A DNA stretch of 64,000 nt from an uncultured Desulfospira sp. (GTDB lineage Bacteria; Desulfobacterota; Desulfobacteria; Desulfobacterales; Desulfobacteraceae): NCBI GenBank assembly GCA_963663165.1, contig OY760175.1:2272001-2336000 (forward strand), read 5' to 3'. Within the stretch, counting starts at the first letter, position 1. Each line of letters begins with the position of its first letter. The translations under genes were made by a program, and so were the position numbers. The notes under the pieces were generated by a model. It was not told the DNA's origin and made no database searches. It saw nothing but the letters and a program-made list of their open reading frames with translations. Positions 1 through 55,328 of the stretch are shown here, one piece after another.

Positions 1-981
1 TCTCGGGTTGTTGCCGGGCCCGGCACCTTTTTCGAACAGGTTCAGGATATGAAAAATCTTATCGGTGGCAAGGGACTGCAATATCCGGGGTGCCCCCAAA
101 AAGGATGCCATGGCCGAGGACAGGGTGGCGGCAATGACACCGGCATCAATTAACACCCCCAAGACGGCGGTTTTTTTCATGACACCGTAATCGGACACCA
201 GGCTGTCTGAAGGACTTGACCCGGCAAACACCAGGGCTGCGGAAACATAGACCAGGATGGACAGGCCCACCGCGGCAAAGGTGCCTGAAGGGATACTTTT
301 TCCCGGATTTTCAAGGTCCCCGGACATGCTGACTCCCTGTGTAAACCCGGTGACCGCAGGGAAAAAAATGGCAAACAACGGCCAGAACCCCAAAGCCGGT
401 TGGCTAACGGACCAGTTGGCCATCATTACCCCAGCGTCCCATCCCCCAATGCCGCCGGCATAAAAAGAAACCAGAGCCAGGATCAGAAAGGCCATGACAC
501 CGTATTGAAATTTGGTGGCCAGATCCGCCCCGACCCAGGCCAGGACAAAGAGAAACAAAAGCGCCACAAAGGCAATGACCTGGGTGGATAAATTCAAGCC
601 CGATGAGGCGGCAATCCCCTCAACGGCTTCACCGAACCCGATACAATAAAACCCGATGGACACGGACTGGGCCAGGAACAGAACAAGGCCGATGGCCCCG
701 CCAAACTCTTTGCCCAGGGTCCGGGAAATCAGGTAATAATCCCCGCCCCCTTTGACCTTCATGTTGGTGGAAATGGCGGCCAGGGAGAAACTGGTGAGAA
801 TGGAGATCAGATTGGCAATACAGATGATGACCAGGGCCGTGCCAAGCCCGGAGCTGCCCACCACAAATCCCATGCGCCTGAACAGGATAATGCCCAGGAT
901 GGTTAAAACACTCGGGGTAAACACCCCGGAAAAGGTCCCCAGCTTACCGGGCCGGCTGTTTTTTAAATTATCCTTGCTCAA
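1..981 (-). CDS. Amino acid permease / SLC12-like cation-chloride cotransporter (5' part; runs off window start)
   Basis: Not in the ORF track; translated by hand from TTG at 981: SKDNLKNSRPGKLGTFSGVFTPSVLTILGIILFRRMGFVVG...LAAISTNMKVKGGGDYYLISRTLGKEFGGAIG, which are characteristic CCC/APC motifs. The start overlaps the YhhN stop. Confidence 0.85.
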   Translation of the reverse strand, partial: MSKDNLKNSRPGKLGTFSGVFTPSVLTILGIILFRRMGFVVGSSGLGTALVIICIANLISILTSFSLAAISTNMKVKGGGDYYLISRTLGKEFGGAIGLVLFLAQSVSIGFYCIGFGEAVEGIAASSGLNLSTQVIAFVALLFLFVLAWVGADLATKFQYGVMAFLILALVSFYAGGIGGWDAGVMMANWSVSQPALGFWPLFAIFFPAVTGFTQGVSMSGDLENPGKSIPSGTFAAVGLSILVYVSAALVFAGSSPSDSLVSDYGVMKKTAVLGVLIDAGVIAATLSSAMASFLGAPRILQSLATDKIFHILNLFEKGAGPGNNPR

Positions 982-1640
982 TTTAAAAACCCCGGGGAAA
1001 AGGCCAGGGCAAACTGGGCCGTGTTGTACAGGGGCAGGCCAACATACCGGTTGATGACGGATTTTCTCACGAACCGGTGCCGGGCCACAAACAAATCGGA
1101 AATATAAAATACCACGGCGCCGAACAGCACCAGGGCCCGCCCGGTTATCCTGAAATCCGGGCACCCGGCAAGGGTTCCGGCACCGGTAACCATCAGGGAA
1201 ATAACGATCATATAGGCAATCACCGGCCCTTTCATCTCCCCCAGGTAAGGTTTGAGCTTCAGGTAAATTACCCCGGAGACCGGCACCACGGCCAAAAGAG
1301 AAATCCAGGTACCACAGGTGATACCCCCGGCCATAAAAAAGGCGGCCGTGTAGAACAGATGGCCTGCCAGAAAAATGACAAGCCCCAGGGTAAACACCCG
1401 CCGGTTAAAGAAAAAGATAAGGCAGATATCCCCCATAAAACAGCAGATCAGGCCCCACAAAACCGGGACATAATAGAATGGCACCGGATGGGGCGATATG
1501 GCAGCCGCCAGAATGAACAGCCCGGAAAGAAACGGCTTGGTTGCCAAAATACCTTTAAGGCTCTCCTTTTTTTCCGCAGCCAGCAGTCCGGCCAGCAAAA
1601 TGACGGCACCTGCAATAATCCCAAATTTGGTCATGGCCAT
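978..1640 (-). CDS. YhhN family membrane protein (lysoplasmalogenase-like)
   Basis: Hydrophobic 220 aa with K-P, GDICL, FLAGHLFY, VIAYMIVI, FYISDLFVA and LPLY motifs. Confidence 0.85.
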   Translation of the reverse strand: MAMTKFGIIAGAVILLAGLLAAEKKESLKGILATKPFLSGLFILAAAISPHPVPFYYVPVLWGLICCFMGDICLIFFFNRRVFTLGLVIFLAGHLFYTAAFFMAGGITCGTWISLLAVVPVSGVIYLKLKPYLGEMKGPVIAYMIVISLMVTGAGTLAGCPDFRITGRALVLFGAVVFYISDLFVARHRFVRKSVINRYVGLPLYNTAQFALAFSPGFLN

Positions 1641-1711
1641 AGGTCTCCAAAGGGGGGTTGTATCCTCTGCCTGGTTGGATACCAGATTTTTAAATCAAAG
1701 AAAATCAAATT

Positions 1712-1820
1712 GTAACTGTTCAGCAGTGCCCCATCTTCGCTCATTTAAGGTCTTCTCACATAGCAAAAGTATGCACCCAAGACCTGACCAAACAAATATG
1801 AAGCACTGATGAACAGTTAC
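1712..1820. repeat. 109-bp unit bounded by 18-bp inverted repeats (MITE/REP-like)
   Basis: gtaactgttcagcagtgc (1712-1729) and gcactgatgaacagttac (1803-1820), 17/18 complementary. Confidence 0.6.
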
Positions 1821-1894
1821 GGGCCAAGGTTTTACTTATTTTTCAGCATTAGCTGAATAGTTGCATTAAATTTACGGCATTTTGCATGAACGGG

Positions 1895-4800
1895 TTATTT
1901 TTCCGGACGGATATGAAGGGCCTGGCTCAGATCACCCAAAGAATTTTTGGCGCTTTCAAAATCATACCCTTTGATTTCCCGGGCCAGGCGCATGAGCAGA
2001 TCCTTGCCGGGGCTGTTGCCTATCATCCCGGACAGCTGCCGGACCTGTGCGGTGGCAGCGGTATCATTATCTTCAATCAGCGTCTCTAACTCGGCAAGCA
2101 GAGACCGGACGGTTTCAGGATCAGCCGGATGGCCCTGGATCATTTTCTCATCCGTTTTTTCAGCTTCAAGCCCCTCTATGGACTGGATAACCGTTTTCAG
2201 GTGTCCTGCAAACACCGGCAGCAACTTTAAGGATTCCTTGATATTTTCCTGTTTTAAAGCCGTCTCCAGATCGGATGCGGCCTCAAAAAGCGGCTCCGCC
2301 CCCATATTGCCGGCCACCCCTTTAACCGTATGGGCAACCATCCGGGCCGTTTCCGGATCATTGTGGTCCAGGGCCTTTTGAATATCGGCATCGGCGCTGC
2401 CCTGGCTGCCGGCAAATTTGTTGAGCAGGTCCCGGTAAAGGGTGATGTCGCCGGACAGCCGGGCCAATCCGCTTTCGGTGTCGATTCCCGGCAGGGGCCC
2501 TAAGGCATCTGCCGGACTTAAACCGGCCTTTTCGGGGTCATCTCCCGGTTCCGGGAGAACCGGCCCCTTTCCTGTGGGCTTTACCCACCGGCACAAGACG
2601 TTGAGCAAATCATTAACATCAATGGGCTTGGCCACATGATCGTTCATCCCCGCATCCAGTGCCTTTTCCCGGTCACCGGCCATGGCATTGGCGGTCATGG
2701 CGATGATGGGCAGGTCTTTATATTCATCTTTTTTCCGGATTTCCCTGGCAGCGGTATAGCCGTCCATTTCCGGCATGTGGATATCCATGAGAACCGCATC
2801 AACGGGGACCGCCTCAAGCGCCGCTATTCCTAGAAGGCCATTATCTGCCACCGTCACCAGAAAGCCATTGTTCTCCAGAATTCCCCGGGCCACCTGCTGA
2901 TTGATCTCATTGTCCTCTACCACTAGAAGCCTTGCCCCCCGGATCAATTCAACACCGGGAAGGGGAGCGTCTTTGGCCCTAGGGCCTGAAGACGCCCGCC
3001 GGCGGATGCCAAAAGCCGCCATGATGGCGTTAAACAGCAGGGAGGGGGAAACCGGTTTGATCAAATATCCGTCCAGCCCCACATCGTTAGCCGCCTGCAC
3101 CAGGTCCTCCCTGGCATAGGCAGACACCATGATAATGGCAGGGACCTTTATGGCCGGTGAATTCCGGATGATCCGGGAAGCGGCAAGCCCGTCCATCCCG
3201 GGCATTTTCCAATCCATGAGAACCAGGTCATAGGGCTCTTTTTGAGCGGCCGTTTCAAGTTCGGCCAAAGCGGCATCGGCGCTGCCGGCCTGGGTCACCC
3301 TAAAGGACATGGATTCCAGCAGTTCCTGCAGTACGGTCCGGCAAAGGGGGTTGTCGTCAACTACCAGGACTTTTTTATCCTTTAACCCGGTATGGGGCAG
3401 CAGGGGGTTGGCAGGCCGGGACCCGGACTTTTTCAAGCGGACGGTAAAAAAGAACGTGGTCCCCTGCCCCATTTCACTTTCTGCCCATATACGGCCGGCC
3501 ATCATTTCCACCAAGCTTCTGCTGATGGCAAGCCCTAAGCCCGTTCCCCCGTATTTCCGGGTGGTGGAGGCATCGGCCTGGGTAAAGGCATGAAAAAGGC
3601 CGTCCAGCTGTTTTTGGTTCATCCCGATGCCGCTGTCCTGAACAAAAAACTCCAGTTCCACTTCATTTTTGCCGTCTTCCAACAGGCGGCAGCCCAGAAC
3701 GATCTGTCCCTTTTCAGTAAATTTAACCGCATTGCCCGTCAGGTTGGCCAGTATCTGTCCTAACCGCAACGGGTCTCCTTCAAGGACATCGGGCAGGGCC
3801 GGATCAATGTTGAAAATCACCTCCAGTCCCTTTTCCTGGGCCTTGATGCCGACAAGGGCGGTGATGTTGTCCAATACCTCTTCAAGGGAAAATTCAATGA
3901 TTTCCATGGTCAGCTTGCCGGCTTCGATCTTGCTGAAATCCAGAATATCATTGATCACCCCGAGCAGGGCCTTTGAACTGCCCTGGATTTTATGGATATA
4001 ATCGGACTGAAGGTCATCAAGCTCTGTCTGAAGGGCCAGATGGGAAAACCCGATCACCGCATTTAAAGGGGTCCTTATTTCGTGGCTCATGTTGGCCAGA
4101 AATTCGCTTTTGGCCCGGGTGGCATGTTCCGCGATCTGCATGGCCTTTTGAAGGTCGGCGGTCCGTTCTTTGACCAGGGATTCCAGATGGTCTTTGTAGG
4201 CGTTCAGTTCCTGCTGGGTTTTTTTCAGTTCACTGATATCCTTGGTGATGGAGGCAATGCCCATGGGCTTTCCTTCGTCGTTTTTCAACAAAGAAAGGGT
4301 CAGCAAAATGGGAATGCTGGTCCCGTCTTTTTTCTTTCGCGACCATTCCATGGCCCGGATGGATTCCCCGCTTCTGCACCGCTGGTAAAGCTGCCGGGTC
4401 TCTTCTATCATTTCATCCGGGACAATCCCCCAGATCCGGTTGCCCAGAAGCTCTTCTCTGGAATACCCGTAGGCAGCCACAGTGGCTTCATTGACATCTT
4501 TGATATTTCCGGAAAGATCGCATACCAGGATGGAATCGGCCGCTGATTCAAAAACCCTGGACATCAGGCTTAATCCCCGCTCGGCCTGCTTTTTGGCCTG
4601 CTCCACCTGTTCAAGCAGTTTCTGTCTTTCAGTGATATCCATTATAAGACCGGCTGTCCGGGTGACGTTTCCCTGATCGTCTTTTTCAAGGGGCTGGGAA
4701 AGGGCATTGATCCAGCGCCAGTCTTTTTTATTATAAGAGATGCGGTAATCTATGCTGATTAAGAAGACTTCTCCGGAAAACAATGGAGAAAGGCCCTGGC

Positions 4801-41578: not shown

Positions 41579-43936
41579 CTATTGTCGATTTTTATATTTT
41601 CCAATCAAATCGTTTAAAGTTTTCAAGAATGAATTGAGGTATTCTTCATCAACAGTGTGATTGTCTGTGTTCTTTAATAAGTTCTGTACCGTTCTCAAAT
41701 CAGTTTTGACCTCATCATATGAAAACTTTAGCGCATGATTATTTCTGATACTTCCCAACAAAAGAAAAAGCATATAAAAATCCACTAATGACCTTTTTCT
41801 AAAGCCTTTTTGTCCTTTCCGCTCTAAACCAAATAAGCTATTGAGTTTATCTTTTTGATCACTATTCTTTAAAAGAAGATTTAAATTTTCTATAAAGGTT
41901 TCAACTTTCCGAATACTCGTAATGAATTTTCGTTTTTCAAGTTCTTTTACTGATAGGCTTTCTAATGTTACTGAGATACTTTTCTTTTCTTTAATACGAC
42001 AATTTAATTTTTCTTCTCTTTTATAAACGCCTAAACTGTTTAAATAGTCTTTTTTATAAGCGATATAAGATAGCATAGTTATCATTTCTTCATTGAGCAT
42101 TCGATCTTTTGTTCCGTCTTTCCGACGCACTTTTATGTAAAACCAATCAATATGTTTGTCAGTTATTGTTCTAATCGTTTCAATTACATCTTTATCGAGG
42201 AAGGAATTCCACATTTCAAAAGAATTTTCTTTTATCGGATAGGGTTTGTTATTCAACCTGATAAATAGATCCACAGGGTCAAAGTCTGGATTCAGTTTAG
42301 AATCAATTTCAATAGTTTGTATCTTAAAGTCCAGAATTTTATCTTGAATGTCTGTGTCTAAATCGTCAAATTTTTTGTTGTTAAACTCTTTAAGAATCTT
42401 TAGTTTACCCAAAGAATAGTTAGAATTGCTTGTGTAAAACAGATTCCCTTTTTCATCTCTATATTGTTTCCCTAAAAAACCAAGAATGGAAAGTAGTCTT
42501 TGTTGACCATCTACCAATTCTTTCGTTTTATCCTCATTTTTAAATATAAAAATAGGGGGTAAATTTATACCTAAAAGAATACTTTCTATGATCGCAGAAG
42601 ATTTATAAATAGAGATTTTTTCTTGCCTTTGATAAGAGGGTCTTAAAAGATATTTTTGTGTCCTCAAATCACTCATTAATTCATCAACTGGAACAACTGA
42701 AGGGTCAGGTTTGTTAGCTCGGAGGCTTTCAAGTTCTTGAATTTTTAATTTCGCATCTGTTTCACTTTGTCTTAGTTTTTTAATCTTCTTTTTAAATTTT
42801 GCATCTTTTATGTAAATTGAAAAATTTACATCATATCTTTTTTCGAAAAAATTGGCTGTATCTTGGAATCGACTTATAATAGGCTTGTACTGGAAACTAT
42901 TGTCAGCAAGGTAGAGCCTGGAATTGTTTGAATAATGACTTTCTATAGAGCGGCAATCCTCTTTTTGAAAAGAAATGATTTCGCCACCATCTTTTTTTTC
43001 TTTCGATAGAATATCTATGGCCCACAAAATACATTCATAAATTAATTTGTTATTTTTAATCTCGTCATCAGACATGTTATTTCGGACTTCAATTACAAGT
43101 TCTAATTTTTCCAAAAAACTATTGCAAAAAGCATCTATCTCATCTGTGTTTTCTCTCAAAAAATCATAATATAGTTGAAGAATTTCTGTACGGTTATTCC
43201 CAGCAGCATAAGATGTTATTGGAAATTTTGTTAACACCATAAATTTACGCAGAAACTGCAATACTAATGCCATCTCACTGGAACTTTTTTGTCCTCGCGG
43301 CCCCAAAAAACAATCAACAATATTTTTTAGCAGGACTTTGTTTTTTAGCAACTTGCCTCTTAGGTAATTTGTGATATCATCTTCGTCATATTTTGCGTTG
43401 TCAATCTCGGACGTGTTTAAAGGAGTTATACCTGAATTATATCTCCTGAAGATTTCTTTTTTAATTTTATCTTCAACAATCGGATCTAATTGTGGTTCAT
43501 TTATAACTTCAAATTCGAAAATTCGAATTTTGGCTGAGTCTAAAATATCCACTATGTCAGAATCTAGTTTATTAAATGTTGATTTTTGAAGTTGTGGTAA
43601 TTTTAGCAAACCTTGAAGAGAAAGTGCTATCTCGTTTCGTTTAAACCTTTTAATAGTTTCAAATCGTTGTCTTCCATCTATCACCTCAATTTTACCATTG
43701 GAGTTAAAAAAAATTAAAGGGGGGATATCGGTCCCTAAAATTATACTTTCAATAAAAAAAGTTGCTTTATTTTTATCCCACACATAATTTCGCTGATAAT
43801 ATGGATCATATTTGATTTTTCGAGACAGTCTTTCTCCAAACAGTGTTTTAATAGACATCGAGTATGAGGTGATTTTTAAATGGCTTTTAAAAATTTTCTC
43901 AAATTCCTTCTGGTTTAGATAAAGTTCTTTTTCCAT
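41579..43936 (-). CDS. Tandem DUF262 (ParB/Srx-like) protein, candidate anti-phage
   Basis: Two complete motif sets: PYYQRNYVW...FIESIILG..IPPL...IDGRQR...IFRRYNSG and PSYQRQ...IIESILLG.NLPPI...VDGQQR...LFIRLN; very AT-rich. Confidence 0.85.
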   Translation of the reverse strand: MEKELYLNQKEFEKIFKSHLKITSYSMSIKTLFGERLSRKIKYDPYYQRNYVWDKNKATFFIESIILGTDIPPLIFFNSNGKIEVIDGRQRFETIKRFKRNEIALSLQGLLKLPQLQKSTFNKLDSDIVDILDSAKIRIFEFEVINEPQLDPIVEDKIKKEIFRRYNSGITPLNTSEIDNAKYDEDDITNYLRGKLLKNKVLLKNIVDCFLGPRGQKSSSEMALVLQFLRKFMVLTKFPITSYAAGNNRTEILQLYYDFLRENTDEIDAFCNSFLEKLELVIEVRNNMSDDEIKNNKLIYECILWAIDILSKEKKDGGEIISFQKEDCRSIESHYSNNSRLYLADNSFQYKPIISRFQDTANFFEKRYDVNFSIYIKDAKFKKKIKKLRQSETDAKLKIQELESLRANKPDPSVVPVDELMSDLRTQKYLLRPSYQRQEKISIYKSSAIIESILLGINLPPIFIFKNEDKTKELVDGQQRLLSILGFLGKQYRDEKGNLFYTSNSNYSLGKLKILKEFNNKKFDDLDTDIQDKILDFKIQTIEIDSKLNPDFDPVDLFIRLNNKPYPIKENSFEMWNSFLDKDVIETIRTITDKHIDWFYIKVRRKDGTKDRMLNEEMITMLSYIAYKKDYLNSLGVYKREEKLNCRIKEKKSISVTLESLSVKELEKRKFITSIRKVETFIENLNLLLKNSDQKDKLNSLFGLERKGQKGFRKRSLVDFYMLFLLLGSIRNNHALKFSYDEVKTDLRTVQNLLKNTDNHTVDEEYLNSFLKTLNDLIGKYKNRQ

Positions 43937-43948
43937 AAAAAACCTATA

Positions 43949-45250
43949 TTAATTTTGATCCATTGTTATGTTTATTGAGTTATCAGAAATGATTAAATAG
44001 CTTAATTCATAGTCATTAATTTTCACCTCTGTATTGAATTTTGCATCCTCGAACCTTGAAATTGCCATAATATCATAGATGAGAAAGTTAAGAAAAAGAG
44101 AGAACGTTTGAATCGAATAGTTAAAATAGTCATGGAAACGAAAATCGTAATCATCGGACAAATGGACCTTTAGGGATATCTGATTTAAATCAATCATTGT
44201 TAGCTCAAAAATTGAATTGAGGGCCGGATGATTTTGGGAAATGTTGATCACTTCTCCTTCAAACAACTTATATTTTTCTTTCTTTCCTTGGTTAATACAT
44301 ACAGCCAACATTTGCACAAACCAATTATGAAATAAAAGAATATTTTTGTGATCGGGTGTTAAATATTTTTTATACATAACTTTTAAGGTCGGAGGCAAAT
44401 GTTTGAGAAGATTGTATTTTAAAATGAAAGGTTGGAAGTTCCTGCCATATACAGTATGAGCGTTATAGAACAACATAAGCAACTCTTGCTCTCTAAGTTG
44501 AGAACGAACAATTTTTGCATAAAAAAATTGCTCTTTATCTGTTAGACTTGAGGAGTCTTCAATAAATCTAACAATTCTATACAACGATCTAAAATAATGC
44601 GCAAAACTATTTTTATCTTGAAAATAAATATCTTCATATACTTCGATAGATGCAGTATGTAATGTCTGAGGATCGTTTTCATTATCTTCATTAACCTGAA
44701 ATCTTTGGCATAGACTATCTACATTGTTTTCAAAAAATTTTTGAGTGCTGTACAGATCGCGGGTTATATCGGTATAGACATTCAACAAAGCGAAGAATGT
44801 TGATTCAAATTGTTGTTTTTTAAGTATTTTTGACTGGGTGGTATATATTTTCCGGGAAGCTTCTAATTCTTTTGTTTGAAAGCTAAATTCTTTTGATTGA
44901 AGCTGAAGTGCTTCAATTTGTTTTTCAAGAGCATCTCGATTAATTTGAATATCTTTTCTTTGCTCCTTTAACGCTATATAGAAGAGGATTACCCCTGCTA
45001 AAGCCCAAATTGAACCAACAACACCTGTAATAAAATCGCCAAATTGACCAAATGCTTCTTTATTGATAGGTACACTAGCATCCAAGATCGGCTCTTTCCA
45101 TATATAAAAAAAAGGAGCGGCCAAAAATATACATACGCCAATGCCAATTAGAATGTATGTGCATTTTTCATTTAGCAAAATACGCCTCTTTCCGAATTTT
45201 AATTTTGCTTTAAGCTTGTTTCTTGTAACAAAAGATATTACGGCTAACAA
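43949..45250 (-). CDS. Putative phage abortive-infection family protein with two N-terminal TM helices
   Basis: GQFGDFITG TM region, coiled coil, QQFESTFFALL, HYFRSLYRIVRFI, YAKIVRSQL..ELLMLFYN, KYNLLKHL. Start uncertain; TTG at 45178 has a better RBS. Confidence 0.75.
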   Translation of the reverse strand: MLAVISFVTRNKLKAKLKFGKRRILLNEKCTYILIGIGVCIFLAAPFFYIWKEPILDASVPINKEAFGQFGDFITGVVGSIWALAGVILFYIALKEQRKDIQINRDALEKQIEALQLQSKEFSFQTKELEASRKIYTTQSKILKKQQFESTFFALLNVYTDITRDLYSTQKFFENNVDSLCQRFQVNEDNENDPQTLHTASIEVYEDIYFQDKNSFAHYFRSLYRIVRFIEDSSSLTDKEQFFYAKIVRSQLREQELLMLFYNAHTVYGRNFQPFILKYNLLKHLPPTLKVMYKKYLTPDHKNILLFHNWFVQMLAVCINQGKKEKYKLFEGEVINISQNHPALNSIFELTMIDLNQISLKVHLSDDYDFRFHDYFNYSIQTFSLFLNFLIYDIMAISRFEDAKFNTEVKINDYELSYLIISDNSINITMDQN

Positions 45251-45843: not shown

Positions 45844-46679
45844 ATGAAAGTATCAAATGCAATCGACACTTTTCTGAATTATCAAAAAATGAATTCAAAA
45901 AAAACACCATAAGAAATTATCGTTTCTTTCTGACACGGTTCAGAAAAGAATATGGTTTTTTTGAAATATCAGAAATCACATCCGAGCAGGTTATGATTTT
46001 TTTGACCAAGGTTACTGAGGGTCAAAAGCAATCAACGAAGAAACTTAAATTTTCCATGCTCACGTCATTCTTCAATTTTATCAAAGATTCATTTGATTCA
46101 ACGCTCTCAAATCCCTGTGACACCCCTATATTGAGAAAAACATTCAAAACAGCCAAGGGTAGGTCGTGGACAATTCTTGACAGGGACATTGTGGACGAAA
46201 TTATATTTAAGACAAATAATTCCAGAAACCGGTTGATGCTCGAACTGATGGCAAGAGGTGGGATGAGAGTTGGAGAGGTCCTGAAATTAAAAGCCAAGAA
46301 TGTGCACGGCAGAAAATTGGTTTTATCTGATCCGAAAAGCGGAAATCAGACTGAGATTGTTTTTATCCCTAAAAAAGTAGCGGACCGTTTACGAGAATAT
46401 ATCATCAACGTCAAGATAGGAGATGACCATAACGTGTTTCCATTTGGATACACCAGAGCCCGTGAAATAGTTCAAAATGCTGGGAAAATGATAAATTTGA
46501 ATTTGAATCCTCACGATCTTAGACGCCATGCCGCTACTTATGCAAGCAGATCAGGCGTTCCCATTGAAATCGTTTCAAAAATAATCCTCCGCCATGCGAA
46601 TCTTTCAACAACACAGCGGTATCTTGGGAAAGTCAGTGATACAGAGGCAATCCACTGGATTGATAATCTTTACAAATAA
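45844..46679 (+). CDS. Tyrosine recombinase/integrase requiring a -1 shift at an A8 run (45897-45904)
   Basis: AAGGAG RBS plus ATG 45844 gives MKVSNAIDTFLNYQKMNSKK, then TP-stop. The -1 frame continues NTIRNYRFFLTRF into the 45993 ORF with GMRVGEV, HDLRRH, LRH and TTQRY. Confidence 0.8.
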
Positions 46680-46812
46680 AATTTGGGGGACAGGTAAACG
46701 CCGGTCCCCGAGTTACTTTATAACACCATATCTTGTGCCAAGCCTTTGCTAAGATTCAAAAAATGTAACGCGGATACGCCAAATCAGCTACAAAATAATA
46801 TAACGGGAAGAT

Positions 46813-46880
46813 ATCCCGCCGCTTTACCCCGCCAATAAAATATATAAACCTTACCTCGCTTACCCCGCAGTTATCCCGCC
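46813..46880 (+). repeat. Five A(C/T)CCCGC-type direct repeats inside the transposon left end
   Basis: atcccgc 46813, accccgc 46826, acctcgc 46853, accccgc 46862, atcccgc 46873. Confidence 0.75.
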
Positions 46881-47057
46881 GCGAATTTTTTCGAAAAAAG
46901 CTTTGCCAATCTATTTGGAAGAAGTCAATACTTCCTTGATAAAAAAGGCTCGAAGCTGCAACTTCGAGCCTTCAATGTAGACATCCGAGTAGGTTACGGA
47001 AGCCACACCACCGTTTTTATCTAACCACGGCTTCCGTAATTTAGCAAGAGCGGAAGC

Positions 47058-47447
47058 ATGGAAATCGTTTTATTAAAACGTATCGAGTGTAAGCGATGTT
47101 TCCAAATTTTCTATGTGTGCCGCAGTTGCTGGCGGGGGCAGGCATATTGCTGTCAAGAATGCCGCCAGGAGGCCCGCAAAGAAGCGCACTGCAAAGCTCA
47201 AAAAAAATATCGACAAACGCCAAAAGGTAAAGAGGCCCACCGTCGTCAAGAAAAAAACAAAAGATTACGTCAAGCTGAAAAAACCATGGATGATACATCT
47301 ACTATACCCGGTGTAACCCATGATAGTGTCTCTCCCAAGCCATTATGTTCCGGCCCCTGTTGCCATTTTTGTGGGAAAATTGGTTGGGTTGTAGAGCATT
47401 TTCCCTGGCGCGGATATGCAAAACGACCTGTAAGGGCCAATCAATGA
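47058..47447 (+). CDS. Cys-rich basic protein (transposon accessory gene 1)
   Basis: CKRC...CRSCWRGQAYCCQEC, basic helix, C-terminal CHFC. Confidence 0.75.
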   Translation: MEIVLLKRIECKRCFQIFYVCRSCWRGQAYCCQECRQEARKEAHCKAQKKYRQTPKGKEAHRRQEKNKRLRQAEKTMDDTSTIPGVTHDSVSPKPLCSGPCCHFCGKIGWVVEHFPWRGYAKRPVRANQ

Positions 47448-47456
47448 AACATCTTA

Positions 47457-47861
47457 ATGGAGGATAAGACAATGAAAAAAGAAATATTGACAGGCCATTG
47501 CAACAAAATGAAAAACAGATTTTCATCCCGGGAGCTATTTAAACTGAGAAACGATATCCCTGTGGATATGCTGATCCGTGACCATTTACAGATTCCATCC
47601 AAAATCAGGGATGGTGTTTTCCGGTTTTTATGTCCTTTGTGCAATGAGTTTCAAACCGCTGTAAATCCAGCCACCAATCTGGCCAGGTGTTTTCGGTGTG
47701 AGAAGAATTTCAACACCATTGATCTGGTCATGGAAGTCAAGGGATATGGATTCAGGGACAGTGTATTTTTTTTGAAAGAACTGGATGCGGTCTCCTATGT
47801 CCCGGCAAATGTGTTGACGTCTCTTGCCACCGGTATCGGTCAACCCTGGCCTGGGAAGTAA
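47457..47861 (+). CDS. Stand-alone CHC2-type (primase-like) zinc-finger protein
   Basis: FLCPLCNE...ARCFRCEKNFNTIDLVMEVKGYGFRDSV resembles the DnaG zinc-binding domain; exact start uncertain. Confidence 0.8.
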   Translation: MEDKTMKKEILTGHCNKMKNRFSSRELFKLRNDIPVDMLIRDHLQIPSKIRDGVFRFLCPLCNEFQTAVNPATNLARCFRCEKNFNTIDLVMEVKGYGFRDSVFFLKELDAVSYVPANVLTSLATGIGQPWPGK

Positions 47862-47863
47862 AG

Positions 47864-48418
47864 ATGAAACGGCTGCTTCAACTGGAGACCCTTATTGCCC
47901 GTAATCAGGAGAGTTTCTATAAGATCGGTCAGGCGTTAAAAGAAATCCGTGACAGCCGCCTGTACAAACTGGCCCTGTTTGAGACATTTGAAGCATATAC
48001 CAGGGAACGGTGGGATATGGGCAAGTCCCATGCATACCGCCTGATCAAATCTTATGAAGTGATCTATAATTTGTCCCCAATTGGGGACAAAACACCTGCC
48101 AATGAATCCCAGGTCCGGCCTCTTGCTCAATTGGACCCCCTGGACCAGCGCAACACCTGGAAGGCAATCATAGACAACGGTATTGAGTTAACCGCACGGA
48201 ACATCAAAAAATTTGTAGAGGCCCAAAAAATACCCCCGGAGAACAAACCGGATTTGGCGGAACGGATTTCGGCTGAATACATGGCAGCCGTACATGCAAT
48301 GATTGAACAGGTGCGGGTGGCCCAGCATGATCATTGGCAGCAAACGTCCCGGCAGGCTGCATTGTTGTGGCACAGGGTGATCCGCGAAAAAATTTTATCA
48401 AAAGGGGCAAGACAATGA
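47864..48418 (+). CDS. Helical putative DNA-binding protein (DUF3102/ParB-HTH-like)
   Basis: FYKIGQALKEIRDSRLY...TFEAYTRERWDMGKSHAYRLI...NESQVRPL. Confidence 0.65.
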   Translation: MKRLLQLETLIARNQESFYKIGQALKEIRDSRLYKLALFETFEAYTRERWDMGKSHAYRLIKSYEVIYNLSPIGDKTPANESQVRPLAQLDPLDQRNTWKAIIDNGIELTARNIKKFVEAQKIPPENKPDLAERISAEYMAAVHAMIEQVRVAQHDHWQQTSRQAALLWHRVIREKILSKGARQ

Positions 48419-50082
48419 AGAACCTGAGCCTTGATGACCGTTTTTATTTGCTGCTCCATAAAAAAATCATGAATAAAACCGGATCAGCCAAAAGAAGGTC
48501 CAAAAAATATTACAAAGACCAGTACAGGAAAACCGGCATTATCCCGACGCCCCTTCTACTGGTTGAAAAAGGGATTATGGACGGCCGCAAATGCAGCGGC
48601 CGGCCCCGGTCCATAGATGAACAAACCAAAAGGCGGTTTATCGAAATGGTCAAGGCCTCCTGTGACCCGTCATCCCAGGGGTTTATTTTTATTACCCGAA
48701 AAGCCAGAACCATTAAAAATTACCACTATTGGCTTGAAAGAGAATTGGGAAAAACCATCAGCCTTCCGGCACTCAGGCGATGTGCCCAAAGGGAAGGCCT
48801 TAAATTTTACCTGGAAAAAGAAGATTTTGAAGAAAATGCCCCGGTGAAAAACGCATTCAAGCCTGTTCCGGTGTTTGGCCTGATACAGGTAGACGGTTGC
48901 AACTTTCGATATTTAAAAATCAAAAATGAGGCTGGCCACTGGCAAAAACCCCAAGTCATTGAAACGTTTGATACCGGTTCCCGGTACATGTTTGAACTTG
49001 ATGCCTATTTCGATGAAAGCAGCTTAAGCTCAGTGGATTTGTTTAACCGGTTTTTGCTTTCCACCCCATTTCCCCAGAAGAAAGTCCGGTTCAGGCCGGA
49101 TAACGCCACAGGATTTGTAAATCTCAAAAGAGTCATCAACGCCTTGAATATAAAACATTCCGTTCCCGGAGGATTTTATCTGGCGCCGGATTTTTCAAGG
49201 GTAAGTGCCCCCAGGGACAAGGCCCATCTTGAGTCCTCCCATCGCAGTCTTCATAATTTTGAAATCCGAATCATCAAGGCGTTTGAAGACAGGATTGTAA
49301 AGACCGTTCCAGGGGTTATCTTCAATAATAAGAAAAAAGAAAAAATCACTGTGACACTCCTTGATATTACACTCCGGGATTTAAGACACAGCCCCCTGAT
49401 AAAAGAATACCGCCACGAACATAACCACACCAAACATTATTTTAGCGAAAATGGAAAGATCAGTGCATGGGTTCCGGCACAAAAGCTGGAAGAATTTTTA
49501 TCAAGGCAAGCCGATATCCTTACCTTTTCACCGGATGAGGTGCAGGAATATATGAAGTATGGCTACAGGAAAATAAAAGCCACTGTATCTAACAAAAGAA
49601 CCATTCGCCATGACAACCGGATCTATTGTGTAACCAGTGGTACAGACCGGTTCAGCAGGCATAAAAGTACACCGGTGCAAATATCAGTATATAAGGGCAA
49701 GCTGTTTATTTTTGAACGGGGGGAAGACGGCATACTATTGGGCGAAGCCCTTGCCACAAAGCCGTTTGACAAACCACCTGACCCAAAATCTGTACCAGTG
49801 GCCCCGGATGAACTCGACATGATGATCATTTTTCTGGAAAAGCACAACATGGCCGTCGACCGGCGAGTCTTAATTGAAGCTTATCATAGCGGCCTCACTC
49901 TGGCCCGGGCTCAACAAGTGCTTCATCATAATCAATCCAGGTACAAGAATTATATGAAAAAGATGCGGCAACCTGAAACACAGAAAAAGCAGGCGGTATT
50001 CAATGCCTTTATGCTTGACTGCCGGAAATTGATCAATACAAACCATGTGGCCACGTATGCATCCTGCGGAGATTTAACATGA
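48415..50082 (+). CDS. DDE transposase/integrase (rve; Mu/TnsB/IS21-like)
   Basis: SGRPRS HTH region, LIQVDG, ETFDTGSR, RPDNATGF, KAHLESSHRSL; ATG 48415 overlaps the upstream stop. Confidence 0.8.
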   Translation: MKNLSLDDRFYLLLHKKIMNKTGSAKRRSKKYYKDQYRKTGIIPTPLLLVEKGIMDGRKCSGRPRSIDEQTKRRFIEMVKASCDPSSQGFIFITRKARTIKNYHYWLERELGKTISLPALRRCAQREGLKFYLEKEDFEENAPVKNAFKPVPVFGLIQVDGCNFRYLKIKNEAGHWQKPQVIETFDTGSRYMFELDAYFDESSLSSVDLFNRFLLSTPFPQKKVRFRPDNATGFVNLKRVINALNIKHSVPGGFYLAPDFSRVSAPRDKAHLESSHRSLHNFEIRIIKAFEDRIVKTVPGVIFNNKKKEKITVTLLDITLRDLRHSPLIKEYRHEHNHTKHYFSENGKISAWVPAQKLEEFLSRQADILTFSPDEVQEYMKYGYRKIKATVSNKRTIRHDNRIYCVTSGTDRFSRHKSTPVQISVYKGKLFIFERGEDGILLGEALATKPFDKPPDPKSVPVAPDELDMMIIFLEKHNMAVDRRVLIEAYHSGLTLARAQQVLHHNQSRYKNYMKKMRQPETQKKQAVFNAFMLDCRKLINTNHVATYASCGDLT

Positions 50083-50741
50083 AGGCAGATTTTATCAGTG
50101 ACAAACGAAGGGTATCATACCTGAGCGCCACTTATAGCCGGATCTACCGGGGCCGGAGCGTACTCATTGAGGGAGATTTTGGAGCGGGAAAAACCAGGTT
50201 TTTAAAACTGCTTCGTCCCAAAAAACTTCATGCCGTATGGGTAGAGTCCCTGTTCAACATACACGAAACCCTGGCATCCATACTCAAAGAATTGAACTAT
50301 GACACCACAGCCACATATCGCAGAACTCCCCAGTACCTGAAAATGATCTGCAACCTGTCCAACTGCTTTATTATTATTGATGAGGCCAATGATCTGGATA
50401 CCAGGGTCTGGCCATATCTTAAGCGGATCATTGATGCCGGTGTTCCTATTGTTTTTGCAGGGCTTCCAAAGGTCAGGACCTATTTGATTCGCAATCACCC
50501 TGATATCCTCAGCCGGTTGAAAACCCTGATTTTATATCCCATAGAGGTTGAGGGCTTTATCGAACAATATAAAGATATCCAGCAGGAAGCCGTTGAGCAA
50601 ATTTATATGGCGGTCAAAGGCGACATGCGTAAATTTAAAGAAATCTGTACTGACTGCCGGGACAAGGCAAAGGAATTGAACCACCAATTTGTTGACATTA
50701 ATCTTGCCCTGGAGTTTATATCTGACCTTCCTCCCCAGTAA
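50079..50741 (+). CDS. AAA+ ATPase (MuB/TnsC/ExeA-like transposition helper)
   Basis: Walker A GDFGAGKT, Walker B IIIDEA, VFAGLP, LSRL, GDMR; ATGA-coupled to the transposase. Confidence 0.88.
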   Translation: MKADFISDKRRVSYLSATYSRIYRGRSVLIEGDFGAGKTRFLKLLRPKKLHAVWVESLFNIHETLASILKELNYDTTATYRRTPQYLKMICNLSNCFIIIDEANDLDTRVWPYLKRIIDAGVPIVFAGLPKVRTYLIRNHPDILSRLKTLILYPIEVEGFIEQYKDIQQEAVEQIYMAVKGDMRKFKEICTDCRDKAKELNHQFVDINLALEFISDLPPQ

Positions 50742-50763
50742 TCCCTGAAAAGTAGATCCGTAA

Positions 50764-50803
50764 AAACAGGCCACTTCTGATTTAACCGGAAGATGGCCTG
50801 TTT
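50764..50803 (+). terminator. Hairpin after the ATPase gene
   Basis: aaacaggcca cttc ... gaag a tggcctgttt. Confidence 0.55.
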
Positions 50804-51335
50804 ATATTTTGACCTTAATTGATTAACGCAATTTTTCGCCTGGATATACCTGTGAAAATCAGGGAACCACAGATTGTTTTTGAATCTTTTTTGAACCGTT
50901 ACATTAATTTGCAACTTTCAATATTTTTGACTGCCAACCTAACCTACTAAATTTATATGAAAAACCATTTCTTTTTTGAAATAATGAACGAAAAAAAATC
51001 CGTTACATTATTTGAATGTGAGCAAGCCTTTATGATAAGGCGATGGAGACTACAAACGCTAAGGCTCACCCTCGAATTGTGGGAGGCCGAAGGACTGAAA
51101 AAAGAATTGAACGGCGTTATTGACAAGGGTTCAGGTCCACAATGATACCATTATGTTGCGAGTGGGTCTAACCTGTTAAATTTAAAGGCGATTTTAGCTA
51201 TTCACATTGCAAATCAATATTGTATTAAAATTCAACACGTTAAAAGTTATTTTAGAAATTTTAAAGATCAGTGGCAACATAATTTTTTGTTTTACTACAT
51301 ACCCCTCCAAAGCTAGCAAAAGCTGCTTCAGTGGT

Positions 51336-52355
51336 TCATAAACTGTCAAGCCAGGCAAGGATTTCAGCACTATTTCCCCAGTCGATTAACTCATCAATTT
51401 TTTTGTCATGAGTTATTTTCGATTGCATGTATTCCATGAGCGTATTTTGGACTTCCCGTTTTTTTGACAGATCCAGCTGCAGATAGGTCATTGTTGATTC
51501 AATACTTTGATGACCAAGACGATTTTTGATATCCGATACCGGAGCACCTGAACTGACCATGTTGACCGCGCACGAATGCCTGAAGCAGTGAGCCGGGCTC
51601 AGTCCTTTCAGCCGTTTTTCCGGCAAGGCCAAGGTCAAATACTTCCTGCAAATTTTATTAATTCCATGTCTGGTCATTTCCCGCTTCCGTTGATTGATAA
51701 ACAGCCTATGGGCAAATAAAGGGATGGGATCTACCCTGTGATTGCTGATATAGTCCGAGATCAAGGAGGCGGTTCTGGAGCATAGATTAATCAACCGGTA
51801 TCGGTTTCCCTTTCCCAGGACCGCAATGGTTTCGTTTTCGGGGTCAAAATAATCAAATTCCAATGTGGCAATTTCACTGGCCCGGGCACCGGAGTCATAA
51901 AGCAGATGGAGAATGGTAAAATCCCTCATGCCTTCTTTCTTTTTCAGATCAACGGCACTGAAGACTTTCATGATTTCTTCAGGATATAAAAATCCCATCA
52001 CCTTTTTTTGAGCTCTTTTCTGAGGGATGTTCAGGAGCCTATCGGCAATTCGTTTTTTATCCGGATGCATGAAGCGGATCATCTTGGCCAAAGACTTAAT
52101 CACGGCCAGGCGTTGGTTTCGAGTCTGCACGCTATTTTTTCGGTTTTTTTCCAGATGCTGGAGAAAGGCAAGCACTGCATCCACCGTTAAGTGTTCGATT
52201 TTCAATGACTTGATTTTTATTGAGTGATGATTCGCCAGAAAATGCAGAAATAACGACAGGCTCTGCTGGTAAGCTTGAACACTTTGTTTGCTCGTCCCTT
52301 TTATCGAGGGCAAGTATTCATAAAAATACTGGTGCAGGCAACTTGTCAATCTCAT
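51336..52355 (-). CDS. Tyrosine recombinase (RitC-like)
   Basis: TRNQRLAVIKS, GARASE, GKG, HCFRHS, LGHQSIESTMTY. Confidence 0.92.
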   Translation of the reverse strand: MRLTSCLHQYFYEYLPSIKGTSKQSVQAYQQSLSLFLHFLANHHSIKIKSLKIEHLTVDAVLAFLQHLEKNRKNSVQTRNQRLAVIKSLAKMIRFMHPDKKRIADRLLNIPQKRAQKKVMGFLYPEEIMKVFSAVDLKKKEGMRDFTILHLLYDSGARASEIATLEFDYFDPENETIAVLGKGNRYRLINLCSRTASLISDYISNHRVDPIPLFAHRLFINQRKREMTRHGINKICRKYLTLALPEKRLKGLSPAHCFRHSCAVNMVSSGAPVSDIKNRLGHQSIESTMTYLQLDLSKKREVQNTLMEYMQSKITHDKKIDELIDWGNSAEILAWLDSL

Positions 52356-53329
52356 GCACCCTCGCTTTTTGATTTCGAAAAATCAAACAGTTGCCAACGG
52401 TGCTCAGCATCCAGTACCTTCAAATAATAGGTTGTGTATTTGTATTTGCTGTGCCCCATATAAGCCGCCAGTACAGGCAGGGCATTTTGGCAGGATTTTC
52501 CTTGCTGTTTTATCCTTTTCAGCGTGTTCACAGCAAACGAATGCCGCAGGGAATGATGTGAAGGCTGGCTGAAGTTTGTAGTACCGATTATTTTCCGGGA
52601 GTGATCAAAATTAATATCTGTGAGAGCCTGTTTAAATCTGCGATTTATAAACATACGTACCAGTTTTTTCCCTTTCACCTTTACCAGCAAAAAAGGGCTG
52701 TCATCCTCATCAGGGAATAACCGGCGAACTTTTAGCAGGTTGTTGATTTCATAGGCTACGGCTTTGGGTATAGGGATCAATCGATCTTTTCTAAATTTTG
52801 TCTTTTCAATATAGATTGTTCTTTCTTCGGGCCTGTAATGGGTTTTCAATAAATTAAGTGTCTCCGAGGTTCTAAGTCCGCACCGGGCCATCAACAAAAA
52901 GGCTATATAAGCACTGAAATCTGACACATAGAATCTCTGGCTTGTCCGCATCGACTTGATTACAGCTTTGAGAAAACGGTCTGTTTCTTCCGGAGAAAAT
53001 ATAAAAGGAATAACGTGATTTTCCTGTAGCTCAGTGATTTCCTGCAACGGATTTTCCAGAATCACATCTTTGCGTATAAGATAATTGAAAAAGATCTTGA
53101 GCATTCTAAAAATCGTATTTATGGACCGGGGTTCAAGATCAAGTTCTGCTCTGAACCGGATAAAAAACAGCGGATCAAAGGATGTCCAAGTCACTTGTTT
53201 TTCAGACACATATCGATCAAGTACCCTAAGACCGTACATCATTGAGGTGTTTGAGTACCCCAGTTGAAAACGATATGTGATAAAATCCTCCATTTGTTCA
53301 GCCAAGAAACTTTTAAAACGTTTCATCAA
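52352..53329 (-). CDS. Tyrosine recombinase (RitB-like)
   Basis: CGLRTSE, TKFRKDRLIP, HSLRHSFAVN, LPVLAAYMGH...TYY. Confidence 0.92.
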   Translation of the reverse strand: MMKRFKSFLAEQMEDFITYRFQLGYSNTSMMYGLRVLDRYVSEKQVTWTSFDPLFFIRFRAELDLEPRSINTIFRMLKIFFNYLIRKDVILENPLQEITELQENHVIPFIFSPEETDRFLKAVIKSMRTSQRFYVSDFSAYIAFLLMARCGLRTSETLNLLKTHYRPEERTIYIEKTKFRKDRLIPIPKAVAYEINNLLKVRRLFPDEDDSPFLLVKVKGKKLVRMFINRRFKQALTDINFDHSRKIIGTTNFSQPSHHSLRHSFAVNTLKRIKQQGKSCQNALPVLAAYMGHSKYKYTTYYLKVLDAEHRWQLFDFSKSKSEGA

Positions 53330-54200
53330 GGATAACCTCCCGCATCAGGCCGATATGAATGCTCAGATACTTTTTTGTCGAATCGAGGCTTTTATGTCCC
53401 ATCATTTCTTTGATTTCATAGATGGACATACCGGACTCCAACATATTCTGGGCAAATGAATGCCGCAGCCAGTATGTGCTTGATCCAAGATTGTTTTTCG
53501 TCATGCATTCTTTTATATCTCGGGGGATATCGCTCCTGTTGGCCGGTTTATAAGGTGGTGTCAACTGTAAAAATAGAACTCGGGATTGAGTTTCAGGTCT
53601 CCCGCCCACAATATAGGCAGTGATCGCTTTGATTATGTTATCGGGAAGGGGAAGATGAGCAGGATTGCAATTTTTTCTTGAACGGATAAAAATCTCTTTC
53701 TGTCTAAATGAGATGTCATCCAGAGTTAGCAACCTGATTTCTTTCGGCCTTAACCCCAGATAACATGCCAGATGCAGGGTGGCATTGGTGCGAAGGTCTT
53801 TTGCTGTTGACAGGTCCAGACTGTCAAACAACTTTTGAATTTCATGAGTGCGCAAAAATTTGGGCGGCTTTGGTGGTCCGAACTCCGGAGGGCTTACCAC
53901 TAAAGCGCCAAGGTCCTTTTTAAGATCTCCGTGTTGATAAAGGTACTTTAAAAATCTTCGTACATGTGACCGGTGCGTCCTGCATGTCCCGGGAGCACGC
54001 CCCTTGTTGCAGACTGCTAAAAATTGATCGACCTGGTCAATGGATATGTTGCCCAAAGAGGTGTTTTCCCCCTGAAGATAGGCCGCAAAATTTGTTAATG
54101 TCCTTTTTGTATAGGACACCGCATCCCCGGAAGCTTGATCTCGACAGTAGTCCAGGTATTTCTCCACTGCTTTGGTGACCTTATTGTCAACTTCCATCAT
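53313..54200 (-). CDS. Tyrosine recombinase (RitA-like)
   Basis: LGLRPKEI, YWLRHSFA, MGHKSLDSTKKY; ATG at 54200 with GGAGG RBS. Confidence 0.9.
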   Translation of the reverse strand: MMEVDNKVTKAVEKYLDYCRDQASGDAVSYTKRTLTNFAAYLQGENTSLGNISIDQVDQFLAVCNKGRAPGTCRTHRSHVRRFLKYLYQHGDLKKDLGALVVSPPEFGPPKPPKFLRTHEIQKLFDSLDLSTAKDLRTNATLHLACYLGLRPKEIRLLTLDDISFRQKEIFIRSRKNCNPAHLPLPDNIIKAITAYIVGGRPETQSRVLFLQLTPPYKPANRSDIPRDIKECMTKNNLGSSTYWLRHSFAQNMLESGMSIYEIKEMMGHKSLDSTKKYLSIHIGLMREVILDETF

Positions 54201-54672
54201 GGCTGCCTCCAAAAGATTGCAGGACAAGGCTGCGGATGGTTGCCGGATCGTGCAGTTCCATGTCTTTTTGGCTTTGAAGGGGGGCTGCTGAGGGCAGAGC
54301 CACTCTTTCCGGAAGGGACAATACTTGGAAAAGGTTGCCGTCAAATGCGACCAGGTTCTTGTCAATCAAGGCATTCCTGGCAAGGATGTAGTCATCAACA
54401 CAAATCCTGAGCAGGGTGCAGATTTTATCATAGCCGTAATAGGACAGCCCATGACGATCCGCCACGATAATCAAAAACAGGTACAGCAGGAGCTGATGAT
54501 GATCCAGGCTTGCCCAGAATCCGTCCCGCAGGAACCGGTGCTCGATAAAAGCAAAGCTTCCTGCAATTTTTCTGATGCGGCAGGGATCTATGGGATTTTT
54601 TGCAATGGACGCACGAAAACGGCGTTGGGGCTTTTGATTCCGATTTTTGGCTTTATTTTGTCCGGTCTCCAT
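54187..54672 (-). CDS. Winged-helix/HTH-like accessory protein
   Basis: FAFIEHRF...LLLYLFLIIVADRHGLSYY..DKICTLL; overlaps the ritA start. Confidence 0.7.
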   Translation of the reverse strand: METGQNKAKNRNQKPQRRFRASIAKNPIDPCRIRKIAGSFAFIEHRFLRDGFWASLDHHQLLLYLFLIIVADRHGLSYYGYDKICTLLRICVDDYILARNALIDKNLVAFDGNLFQVLSLPERVALPSAAPLQSQKDMELHDPATIRSLVLQSFGGSHDGS

Positions 54673-54719
54673 GGCATTGCCTCCTTGAAATGATCGTTAA
54701 AGGCAATTTACCCTTTTTC

Positions 54720-55328
54720 TCAGGGGGGATCAGGCCCCGTTTGTTGTTGGAACCGGCTTTTTCCATGATGTTTTTTTTGAGGGCGAGGGCCAAACCCTAA
54801 CGGCGGTGGCAGGATATCCAAATGTGAAGCGGCAAGTTCCCGGAGATGGGGTAAAACAAACTCAACCCCAAGTGCAGATCTCAATGATGATAAGGTTGCC
54901 TGACCATCATTGGATAAGGACGGAATCAGGTCGATTAATAAAATCAAACTTACATGAATCAAAAACAGTCTGTGCCTCATCCATCGCAAGACACCAGGCA
55001 GGCCGATATCTGGACGCATATTGTCTGCTGCGGCCTCCTGGCTTGGTGCTGCTTCGATCTGATTGATGACCGTTTCCGCCTCCATCAGTGTCCCTGGCAG
55101 ACGTGAGGACAGGCAATCGGGCAACAGCCCGAAGGTGGTCCTGCCATCCGGACAATACCACCGGGCGATTTTTGCACCGTCGGGATACTTTCTGCAATAG
55201 GTCCCATGCCTGGCAAATTTGCAGCCACCTTCCGGATGTAACGGGCACCGATCCAGTTTTGCATCTTTCCATGCCTCCTCCTCTATATATTGTTCAACAG
55301 GAATGTCGGTGGCGAATCGGAGCTGCAC
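54720..55328 (-). CDS. Cys/His-containing accessory protein (DUF6431-like)
   Basis: CPLH...HGTYCR...RWYCP...TFGLLPDCL. Confidence 0.6.
   Translation of the reverse strand: MQLRFATDIPVEQYIEEEAWKDAKLDRCPLHPEGGCKFARHGTYCRKYPDGAKIARWYCPDGRTTFGLLPDCLSSRLPGTLMEAETVINQIEAAPSQEAAADNMRPDIGLPGVLRWMRHRLFLIHVSLILLIDLIPSLSNDGQATLSSLRSALGVEFVLPHLRELAASHLDILPPPLGFGPRPQKKHHGKSRFQQQTGPDPP

Follow-up and report, generated by a model that had tools for sequence, protein, structure and literature searches.

A recently active five-gene transposon with a putative Mu-type transposase and ATPase, from an apparently unnamed family, in an uncultured Desulfospira sp.

Structure of the element

The DNA analysed here (the window) is a stretch of 64,000 nucleotides from an uncultured Desulfospira sp. 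(assembly GCA_963663165.1, contig OY760175.1, positions 2,272,001 to 2,336,000). At window positions 46747–51024 it carries a transposon of 4278 bp with TG..CA termini. The 6-mers on either side (46741–46746 and 51025–51030, plus strand) are identical and form the target duplication, which is single copy in an empty allele of the site. The 24-bp terminal inverted repeats, one starting with TG (46747–46770, plus strand) and the other finishing with CA (51001–51024, minus strand), match at 21/24 positions and are the best long inverted pair (88% complementary) within 46500–51300. They are also the outer putative transposase sites, L1 and R1, and their motif recurs at the ends of other family members. 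A second putative site, L2 (46785–46805, plus strand; core 46799–46805, element position 53), is found 35 bp past L1, and its right-hand counterpart R2 (50897–50917, minus strand; core 50897–50903, 122 from the right end) about 103 bp inside R1. The L2 core is at element position 53 in six of the seven subfamilies examined and at position 50 in the remaining one; the R2 core is 120–122 from the end in 7/7. Two repeats of the end motif per end, at nearly constant spacing, are thus common to all seven.

Between the ends are five intact open reading frames (ORFs), all on the plus strand. ORF1 (47058–47447) encodes a Cys-rich protein of zinc-binding type (129 aa) and ORF2 (47457–47861) a stand-alone primase-type CHC2 zinc finger (134 aa); across the family these two positions are exchangeable slots, 1 and 2. 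They are followed by ORF3 (47864–48418; a constant helical protein of 184 aa), the gene of a DDE transposase with a predicted TnsB/MuA/IstA fold (48415–50082; 555 aa) and the gene of a MuB/TnsC-type AAA+ ATPase (50079–50741; 220 aa), and these last three genes overlap by 4 bases. All five genes are under purifying selection, with ratios of non-synonymous to synonymous substitution (dN/dS) of 0.015–0.29.

Copies, target duplications and empty sites

Six copies in the genome match at 100% identity across exactly positions 1–4278, and five more belong to two sister subfamilies at ~77% DNA identity. A perfect, copy-specific 6-bp duplication flanks 4/6 identical copies and 8/11 family copies. Two copies are nested in other multicopy elements, of which 9 and 20 copies are uninterrupted, and for two further copies there is one uninterrupted paralogue each; the overlap between the flanks is exactly 6 bp in all four. 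For the window junction itself, contigs from 3/4 sequencing runs (drawn from two studies; the source of the window may be among them) skip from 46720 to 51023 and retain one copy of the 6-mer, in a slightly diverged allele. No empty site with both flanks is present in two other genomes of the genus, and an in-genome paralogue of the left flank was rejected as the empty site of this copy because the right flank is absent from it. Among 54 related loci there are 38 true end pairs, of which 18 have a 6-bp duplication and one a 5-bp duplication.

Several counts speak against so simple a picture. Two of the six identical copies and 3/11 family copies of the genome have no duplication, nor do 19/38 end pairs elsewhere (6 of them at a contig edge), and on short metagenome contigs a 6-bp duplication is found in only 1/13 end pairs, probably because repeats are collapsed in assembly. 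Six identical copies, four distinct 6-bp duplications and an empty allele of its own nevertheless mean that the element is not a chance arrangement; it is real and recently active. A first-pass annotation, made from the sequence alone, had proposed the TG..CA boundaries, the 21/24 inverted repeats, the internal repeats of the end motif, the five co-oriented, closely spaced or overlapping ORFs and a recent insertion with a perfect 6-bp duplication. All of these stand: the six copies share exactly these limits, the internal cores are where the motif was noticed, and two of the checks that it suggested, for copies with different 6-bp duplications and for an empty site, returned what was sought.

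Three copies of the sister subfamilies (own genome, 2582423–2590977, 1370747–1376431 and 5551902–5564964) are enlarged to 8555, 5685 and 13063 bp. Nested insertions account for the extra length; one of them, an IS21-like five-gene element that interrupts the CHC2 gene, is flanked by a 7-bp duplication.

Transposase and ATPase

No Pfam or NCBIfam model reaches cut-off on the transposase, and its sequence has no match in the PDB. The AlphaFold model (mean predicted local distance difference test score 86) has two helical N-terminal domains, a catalytic core with D160, D229 and E273, a β-barrel and a helical C-terminus. Foldseek identifies the TnsB of a CRISPR-associated transposon (CAST) [PDB-id: 7svw, E = 5e-13] and MuA [4fcy, 3e-10] as the best matches to this model, followed by Tn7 TnsB (1e-8) and IstA (2e-7). 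Superposition with VIA gives Z-scores of 16.9 for CAST TnsB [8aa5, r.m.s. deviation 15.7, 374 aligned residues], 15.4 for IstA [8b4h, r.m.s. deviation 10.5, 285 aligned residues] and 13.9 for MuA. D160, D229 and E273 are invariant in 34/34 diverse homologues, and hhalign places the first two, weakly (E 0.17), on MuA residues 269 and 336, which we take to be catalytic residues of MuA. The transposase is therefore modelled with the TnsB/MuA/IstA fold, in agreement with the D-D-E triad and the IS21/Mu/Tn7 transposase class of the first-pass annotation. The ranking of TnsB (and IstA) above MuA by structure counts against a specifically Mu-type assignment.

The ATPase matches AAA_22 (31 bits) and phrog_296, ‘DNA transposition protein’ (E = 1.4e-11), and retains both Walker motifs, A and B. 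It is the most constrained of the five gene products (dN/dS 0.015–0.025). Its profile scores MuB at 23.0 bits and an IstB at 12.6 bits, and by these scores the protein is MuB-like.

ORF3 and the front cassette

ORF3 (dN/dS 0.08–0.13) precedes the transposase gene in 66/69 genome loci and 77/80 metagenome loci (143/149 together); the loci without it are truncated or, in one case, phage-type. It is the only constant small gene, ORF1 and ORF2 being exchangeable. The public label ‘DNA methylase’ carried by ORF3 was rejected, as the protein has 184 aa and no methyltransferase match. PF01672 (Borrelia partition-type) appears as a precomputed label on 36/120 rows of ORF3 homologues and on 0/24 homologues in our own Pfam scan, and the likeness to partition proteins is for this reason only a hint. 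An ORF3 profile has no significant match in the PDB.

ORF1 (dN/dS 0.29) belongs to no Pfam or NCBIfam family at cut-off, while ORF2 (dN/dS 0.13–0.20) matches PF01807 with 29.2 bits (cut-off 24.9). Across the family, slot 1 holds one of three types of zinc protein (ORF1, a second Cys-rich protein or a DUF6431 protein) and slot 2 either a CHC2 zinc finger or an HTH_36 protein, a winged helix-turn-helix (HTH). The same genes head other mobile elements of the genome. A homologue of ORF1 is the first gene of a 5-copy IS21-like element (read from the sequences as ORF1, HTH, ParB-like, IstA and IstB) and of an 8-copy tyrosine-recombinase element, and a CHC2 homologue stands at the head of a three-recombinase (RIT) element present in 4 copies. 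On this distribution ORF1 and ORF2 appear to be a plug-in cassette that the DDE and tyrosine-recombinase elements in these bacteria swap with one another. Proteins of replication initiation are known to contain domains of both slot-2 kinds, the CHC2 zinc finger and the initiator-type HTH. Most likely the cassette serves as a control module, either regulatory or an aid to a replication step, and all three small proteins may bind nucleic acid.

One of the four RIT copies is located near the right edge of the window (own genome, contig position 2334089), with a Cys-rich gene and a CHC2 protein 70% identical to ORF2. Adjoining the transposon, window positions 51336–55328 (minus strand) hold three consecutive tyrosine recombinases of RIT type. 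An HTH-like gene (54187–54672) and a Cys-rich 202-aa gene without Pfam match (54720–55328) are upstream of these recombinases; the front genes at 54187–55328 look like another combination of the same two-slot cassette. A deeper subclade of the transposon family (L123, L124, L130, L137 and L146) carries the DUF6431 gene as its slot-1 occupant, which Pfam confirms in L123 and L124 and which is not seen in L137; some of its 24-bp ends, judged by eye, begin with TA rather than TG.

Leader of ORF1

The 128 bases upstream of ORF1 are predicted to fold with a z-score of −4.6 relative to shuffled sequences; Rfam has 0 matches in 46700–51100 at E ≤ 1. A covarying hairpin of 11 bp (46941–46972) has an A-run on its left, by which it reads as a terminator for a transcript of the minus strand. 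In 27 distinct leaders 98% of its cells are paired, with changes on both sides at 5/11 pairs. A second helix (46990–47043, plus strand; 46990–47004 with 47029–47043) is 82% paired in the same leaders, with changes on both sides at 4/8 pairs. Controls slid along the leaders are at most 56% paired, and related rows inflate the covariation counts. Duplex energies allow the 3′ arm of the second helix an alternative pairing with bases just upstream of the ORF1 start.

The minus strand of 46941–47047 can be read as a unit for an antisense RNA of ~70 nt, with a −35-like box (47042–47047) and a −10-like box (47019–47024), that ends at the hairpin. The best promoter-like match on this strand falls just before the ORF1 start in 26/27 leaders, at 38–57 nt from the hairpin in the 24 leaders where the motif located the hairpin. 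The full leader occurs 19 times in the genome, each time upstream of an ORF1 homologue and on all three element types, these 19 matches having belonged to the training set of the model. Set against this, the promoter-like match, taken one leader at a time, is weak and mostly non-significant (p 0.53 for the window), and a consensus promoter/terminator scan flags neither the proposed promoter nor the proposed terminator. The leader is best read as an antisense-RNA unit, a candidate regulator of the cassette that it precedes.

Relationship to Mu-like phages

A profile search of 1.84 billion representative sequences returns 183 proteins, the long ones being divergent and many having an N-terminal extension. 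Nine phage-type loci carry a transposase 33–38% identical to that of the window, with the ATPase downstream in 8/9 (29–45% identity) and ORF3 upstream in 2/9. Mu-type terminase-region or portal genes are confirmed at the two loci with ORF3 (L090 and L091), whose ORF3 homologues can be aligned with that of the element from end to end. In L090 a DnaC-like loader gene separates ORF3 from the transposase gene and the ATPase frame stops at 155 aa. These uncultured Mu-like phages appear to be the closest relatives found for the transposase, ATPase and ORF3. Some of the phage assignments are less secure, which tells against this placement: five of the nine loci were judged from the ORF text alone, L094 without even an ORF reading, and L087 shows only repressor-like genes. 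A single phage-type protein used as query finds only itself in viral contigs. More widely, loci L087–L099 represent an uncultured lineage of Mu-like phages with transposases nearly invisible to Pfam and weakly seen by PHROGs.

The direction of descent was approached with trees, supported by the Shimodaira–Hasegawa-like approximate likelihood-ratio test (SH-aLRT) only. L052 (broken frame) was left out of all of them; for the tree of the transposase core a total of 17 rows was omitted (L052, 12 near-redundant element rows, 2 duplicates and 2 long branches). The elements form one shallow clade (SH-aLRT 100) beside the ORF3-carrying L090 and L091 in a quick tree of 64 rows, the midpoint root of which is placed deep among phage-type proteins. 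The free tree of the core with four outgroups also roots among phage-type proteins and needs two changes of the phage label. Most phage-type transposases start with an N-terminal extension that is HTH-like, which the element transposases do not have. These observations favour phages as the source, but the approximately unbiased test does not reject a four-outgroup tree in which the elements are joined to the outgroup (p-AU 0.535) and which has a likelihood 1.7 higher, and the outgroup branches of the ATPase tree are saturated. It is accordingly quite conceivable, at somewhat less than even odds, that transposons and phages are sister lineages or that an element of this kind supplied the phages with their transposition genes. 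Common ancestry of the ORF3–transposase–ATPase core and the uncultured Mu-like phage lineage is what the protein comparisons show, whereas phage descent goes beyond them. A more elaborate proposal, that the element is a natural mini-Mu, in which a Mu-like phage of sulfate reducers was reduced to ORF3, transposase and ATPase and joined to an antisense-RNA-gated cassette that starts or licenses replication and is shared with IS21-like and RIT elements, is a speculative one that we consider rather unlikely.

Comparison with known transposons

The element resembles Mu phages in its TG..CA ends, repeated sites, transposase fold (4fcy) and the succession of a MuA-type transposase and a MuB-type ATPase (PHROG 296). 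It differs in having no virion, packaging, lysis or repressor genes (the five ORFs account for the 4278 bp), no N-terminal HTH extension and only faint sequence similarity to MuA itself. The target duplication of Mu is 5 bp, that of the element 6 bp. The left end of Mu has a long spacer between its sites, as has one end of the element (PMC10122671).

The best structural match of the transposase is a CAST TnsB, and the element, like type V-K CAST, has no TnsA. Tn7-like elements and CAST rely on TnsB, TnsC and TniQ, whereas here ORF3 and the cassette take the place of TniQ/TnsD and Cas genes; no ORF of the element matches TniQ, with sequence-level scans only for ORF1–3. The target duplication of Tn7-like elements is 5 bp, whereas the targets of the element are dispersed and the duplication, where present, is 6 bp (8/11 copies of the genome, 18/38 pairs elsewhere), 5 bp being seen once. 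TniQ/TnsD is described as the mark of the Tn7 clade (PMC10293859).

Tn552, Tn5053 and Tn6049 are likewise compact transposons with a DDE transposase and an ATPase. The target duplication of Tn552 is also 6 bp, and the Tn552/Tn5053 group has a serine resolvase gene, for which the element has no match in Pfam or NCBIfam. The catalytic-core profile scores 18–19 bits on an 11-copy element of this kind in the genome. Tn6049 of Cupriavidus metallidurans, a multicopy transposon of 3.5 kb whose ATPase is of secretion type (PMC2864759), has the nearest compact layout among the published descriptions consulted, Tn552 and Tn6049 having been compared by description. Tn6048 has a 5-bp duplication and the resolvase tniR (PMC11952213, PMC4914505), in contrast to the 6-bp duplication and absent resolvase match of the element.

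The element shares with IS21 size class, gene order and IstA-like domain order (8b4h), and IS21 too has two repeated sites per end (PMC10122671). A divergent IS21-like element, moving via a circle with abutted ends and carrying its three front genes as dispensable passengers, would account for these features, for the 4-base overlap between transposase and ATPase genes, for the ORF1 shared with the IS21-like element of the genome and for one junction at which two ends abut with a 2-bp spacer. We nevertheless think it unlikely. IS21 has only two ORFs, istA and istB (PMC10122671), and IstB is of DnaC/I-like type (PMC11208146), while the element has five conserved genes and an ATPase that is nearer to MuB. 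The IstA and IstB families have no match in Pfam or NCBIfam at E ≤ 0.1, and the catalytic-core profile does not detect the IstA of the same genome. ORF3 is too constant a companion of the transposase, and the selection on the small genes (dN/dS 0.08–0.29) too evident, for passengers, and no further end-to-end junction is found in 400 other genomes or in metagenome contigs.

Extent of the family

Of 8000 candidates scored, 683 proteins are transposase homologues at E ≤ 0.001. Matches occur in 12/61 related genomes, the own genome counted. Species-level genomes contribute 69 loci, most of them under titles of Desulfobacterales and kin, and metagenomes add 364 matches, of which 80 were kept for analysis. 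The family is also present in cultured, closed genomes (L059). Seven short contigs that bear the element (L021, L039, L050, L072, L073, L076 and L080) have titles naming Bacteroidota, Marinimicrobia, Methanosarcinaceae or Christensenellaceae, more probably because a repeat was mis-binned. Neither transposase nor ATPase has a match among 72,556 plasmids or 50,697 cultured phages, the transposase not even at E ≤ 1 among the plasmids, and the literature search, which covered few subscription papers, found no description of the family. By comparison with Pfam, NCBIfam, plasmids, phages and literature, and not with ISfinder or TnCentral, the family is apparently unnamed. That it is already catalogued in such a collection or in an unsearched paper would suit its frequency and its presence in cultured genomes, but is improbable given that homologues are publicly named only ‘integrase’, ‘transposase’ or ‘hypothetical’ and that the libraries compared are silent.

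Surroundings of the insertion

The element is inserted ~60 bp past the stop codon of a XerA-like recombinase gene (45993–46679), which has several diverged paralogues in the genome. Further upstream, window positions 41579–45250 form a defence-like block of low GC content (~30%). One of its products, of 785 aa, has two GmrSD_N stretches, and another has a putAbiC domain.

Discussion

We assign a probability of about 0.8 to the reading that the element is a transposon that is autonomous and recently active, belongs to an unnamed family and has a Mu-type pair as its engine. From the comparisons it is placed outside IS21, Tn7, Tn552 and the Mu phages, and by analogy it would work like MuA/MuB. 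In a model taken from the end synapsis by MuA/IstA-type transposases and the target selection by their ATPases (PMC10122671, PMC11208146), a transposase oligomer would bind the two sites at each end and synapse all four, as MuA, TnsB and IstA do, and would nick the 3′ CA ends. The ATPase would coat target DNA, select the target and deliver the complex, and the ends would be joined to the target across a 6-bp stagger. The zinc protein of slot 1 would be under antisense control, and the primase zinc finger or initiator-type HTH of slot 2 may regulate the operon or help to start replication.

The ORFs of the element have no match to a TnsA-like nuclease or a resolvase in Pfam or NCBIfam, and with neither of these a replication step is most likely needed. 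Mu-like replicative transfer, resolved by host recombination, is given an even chance. It is favoured by one copy with a right flank that begins inside another multicopy element, resembling an adjacent deletion, and by three derivative copies of one assembly (L082, L081 and L083) with chained flanks, although both patterns would also fit misassembly or a recombination of copies with one another. The same three copies share an internal deletion in the transposase gene, and with their chained flanks they seem to represent a defective copy that moved with enzyme supplied in trans. An IS21-like copy-out/paste-in route is the less favoured but still plausible second choice, and other routes appear improbable. 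The clue that conflicts with replicative transfer is the junction in the own genome (contig position 6328325–6328374, L120) where copies of two subfamilies meet, right end against left end, as expected of IS21-type junctions; neither of these copies is flanked by a duplication. A second such junction is found neither in 400 other genomes nor in metagenome contigs, and the contigs of four sequencing runs contain no circle joint of the element.

The element adds a compact, active, multicopy transposon of Mu/TnsB class to the sulfate reducers. As Pfam and NCBIfam are blind to it, it is annotated as ‘integrase’ and ‘DNA methylase’ and is missed by counts of insertion sequences in these bacteria. 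Three genes common to an insertion sequence and transposable phages provide a test case for the reduction of a phage to a transposon. The presence of the cassette on three recombination systems makes the role of small accessory transposon genes testable, and it poses the further question of whether such elements supply their own help for the replication step.

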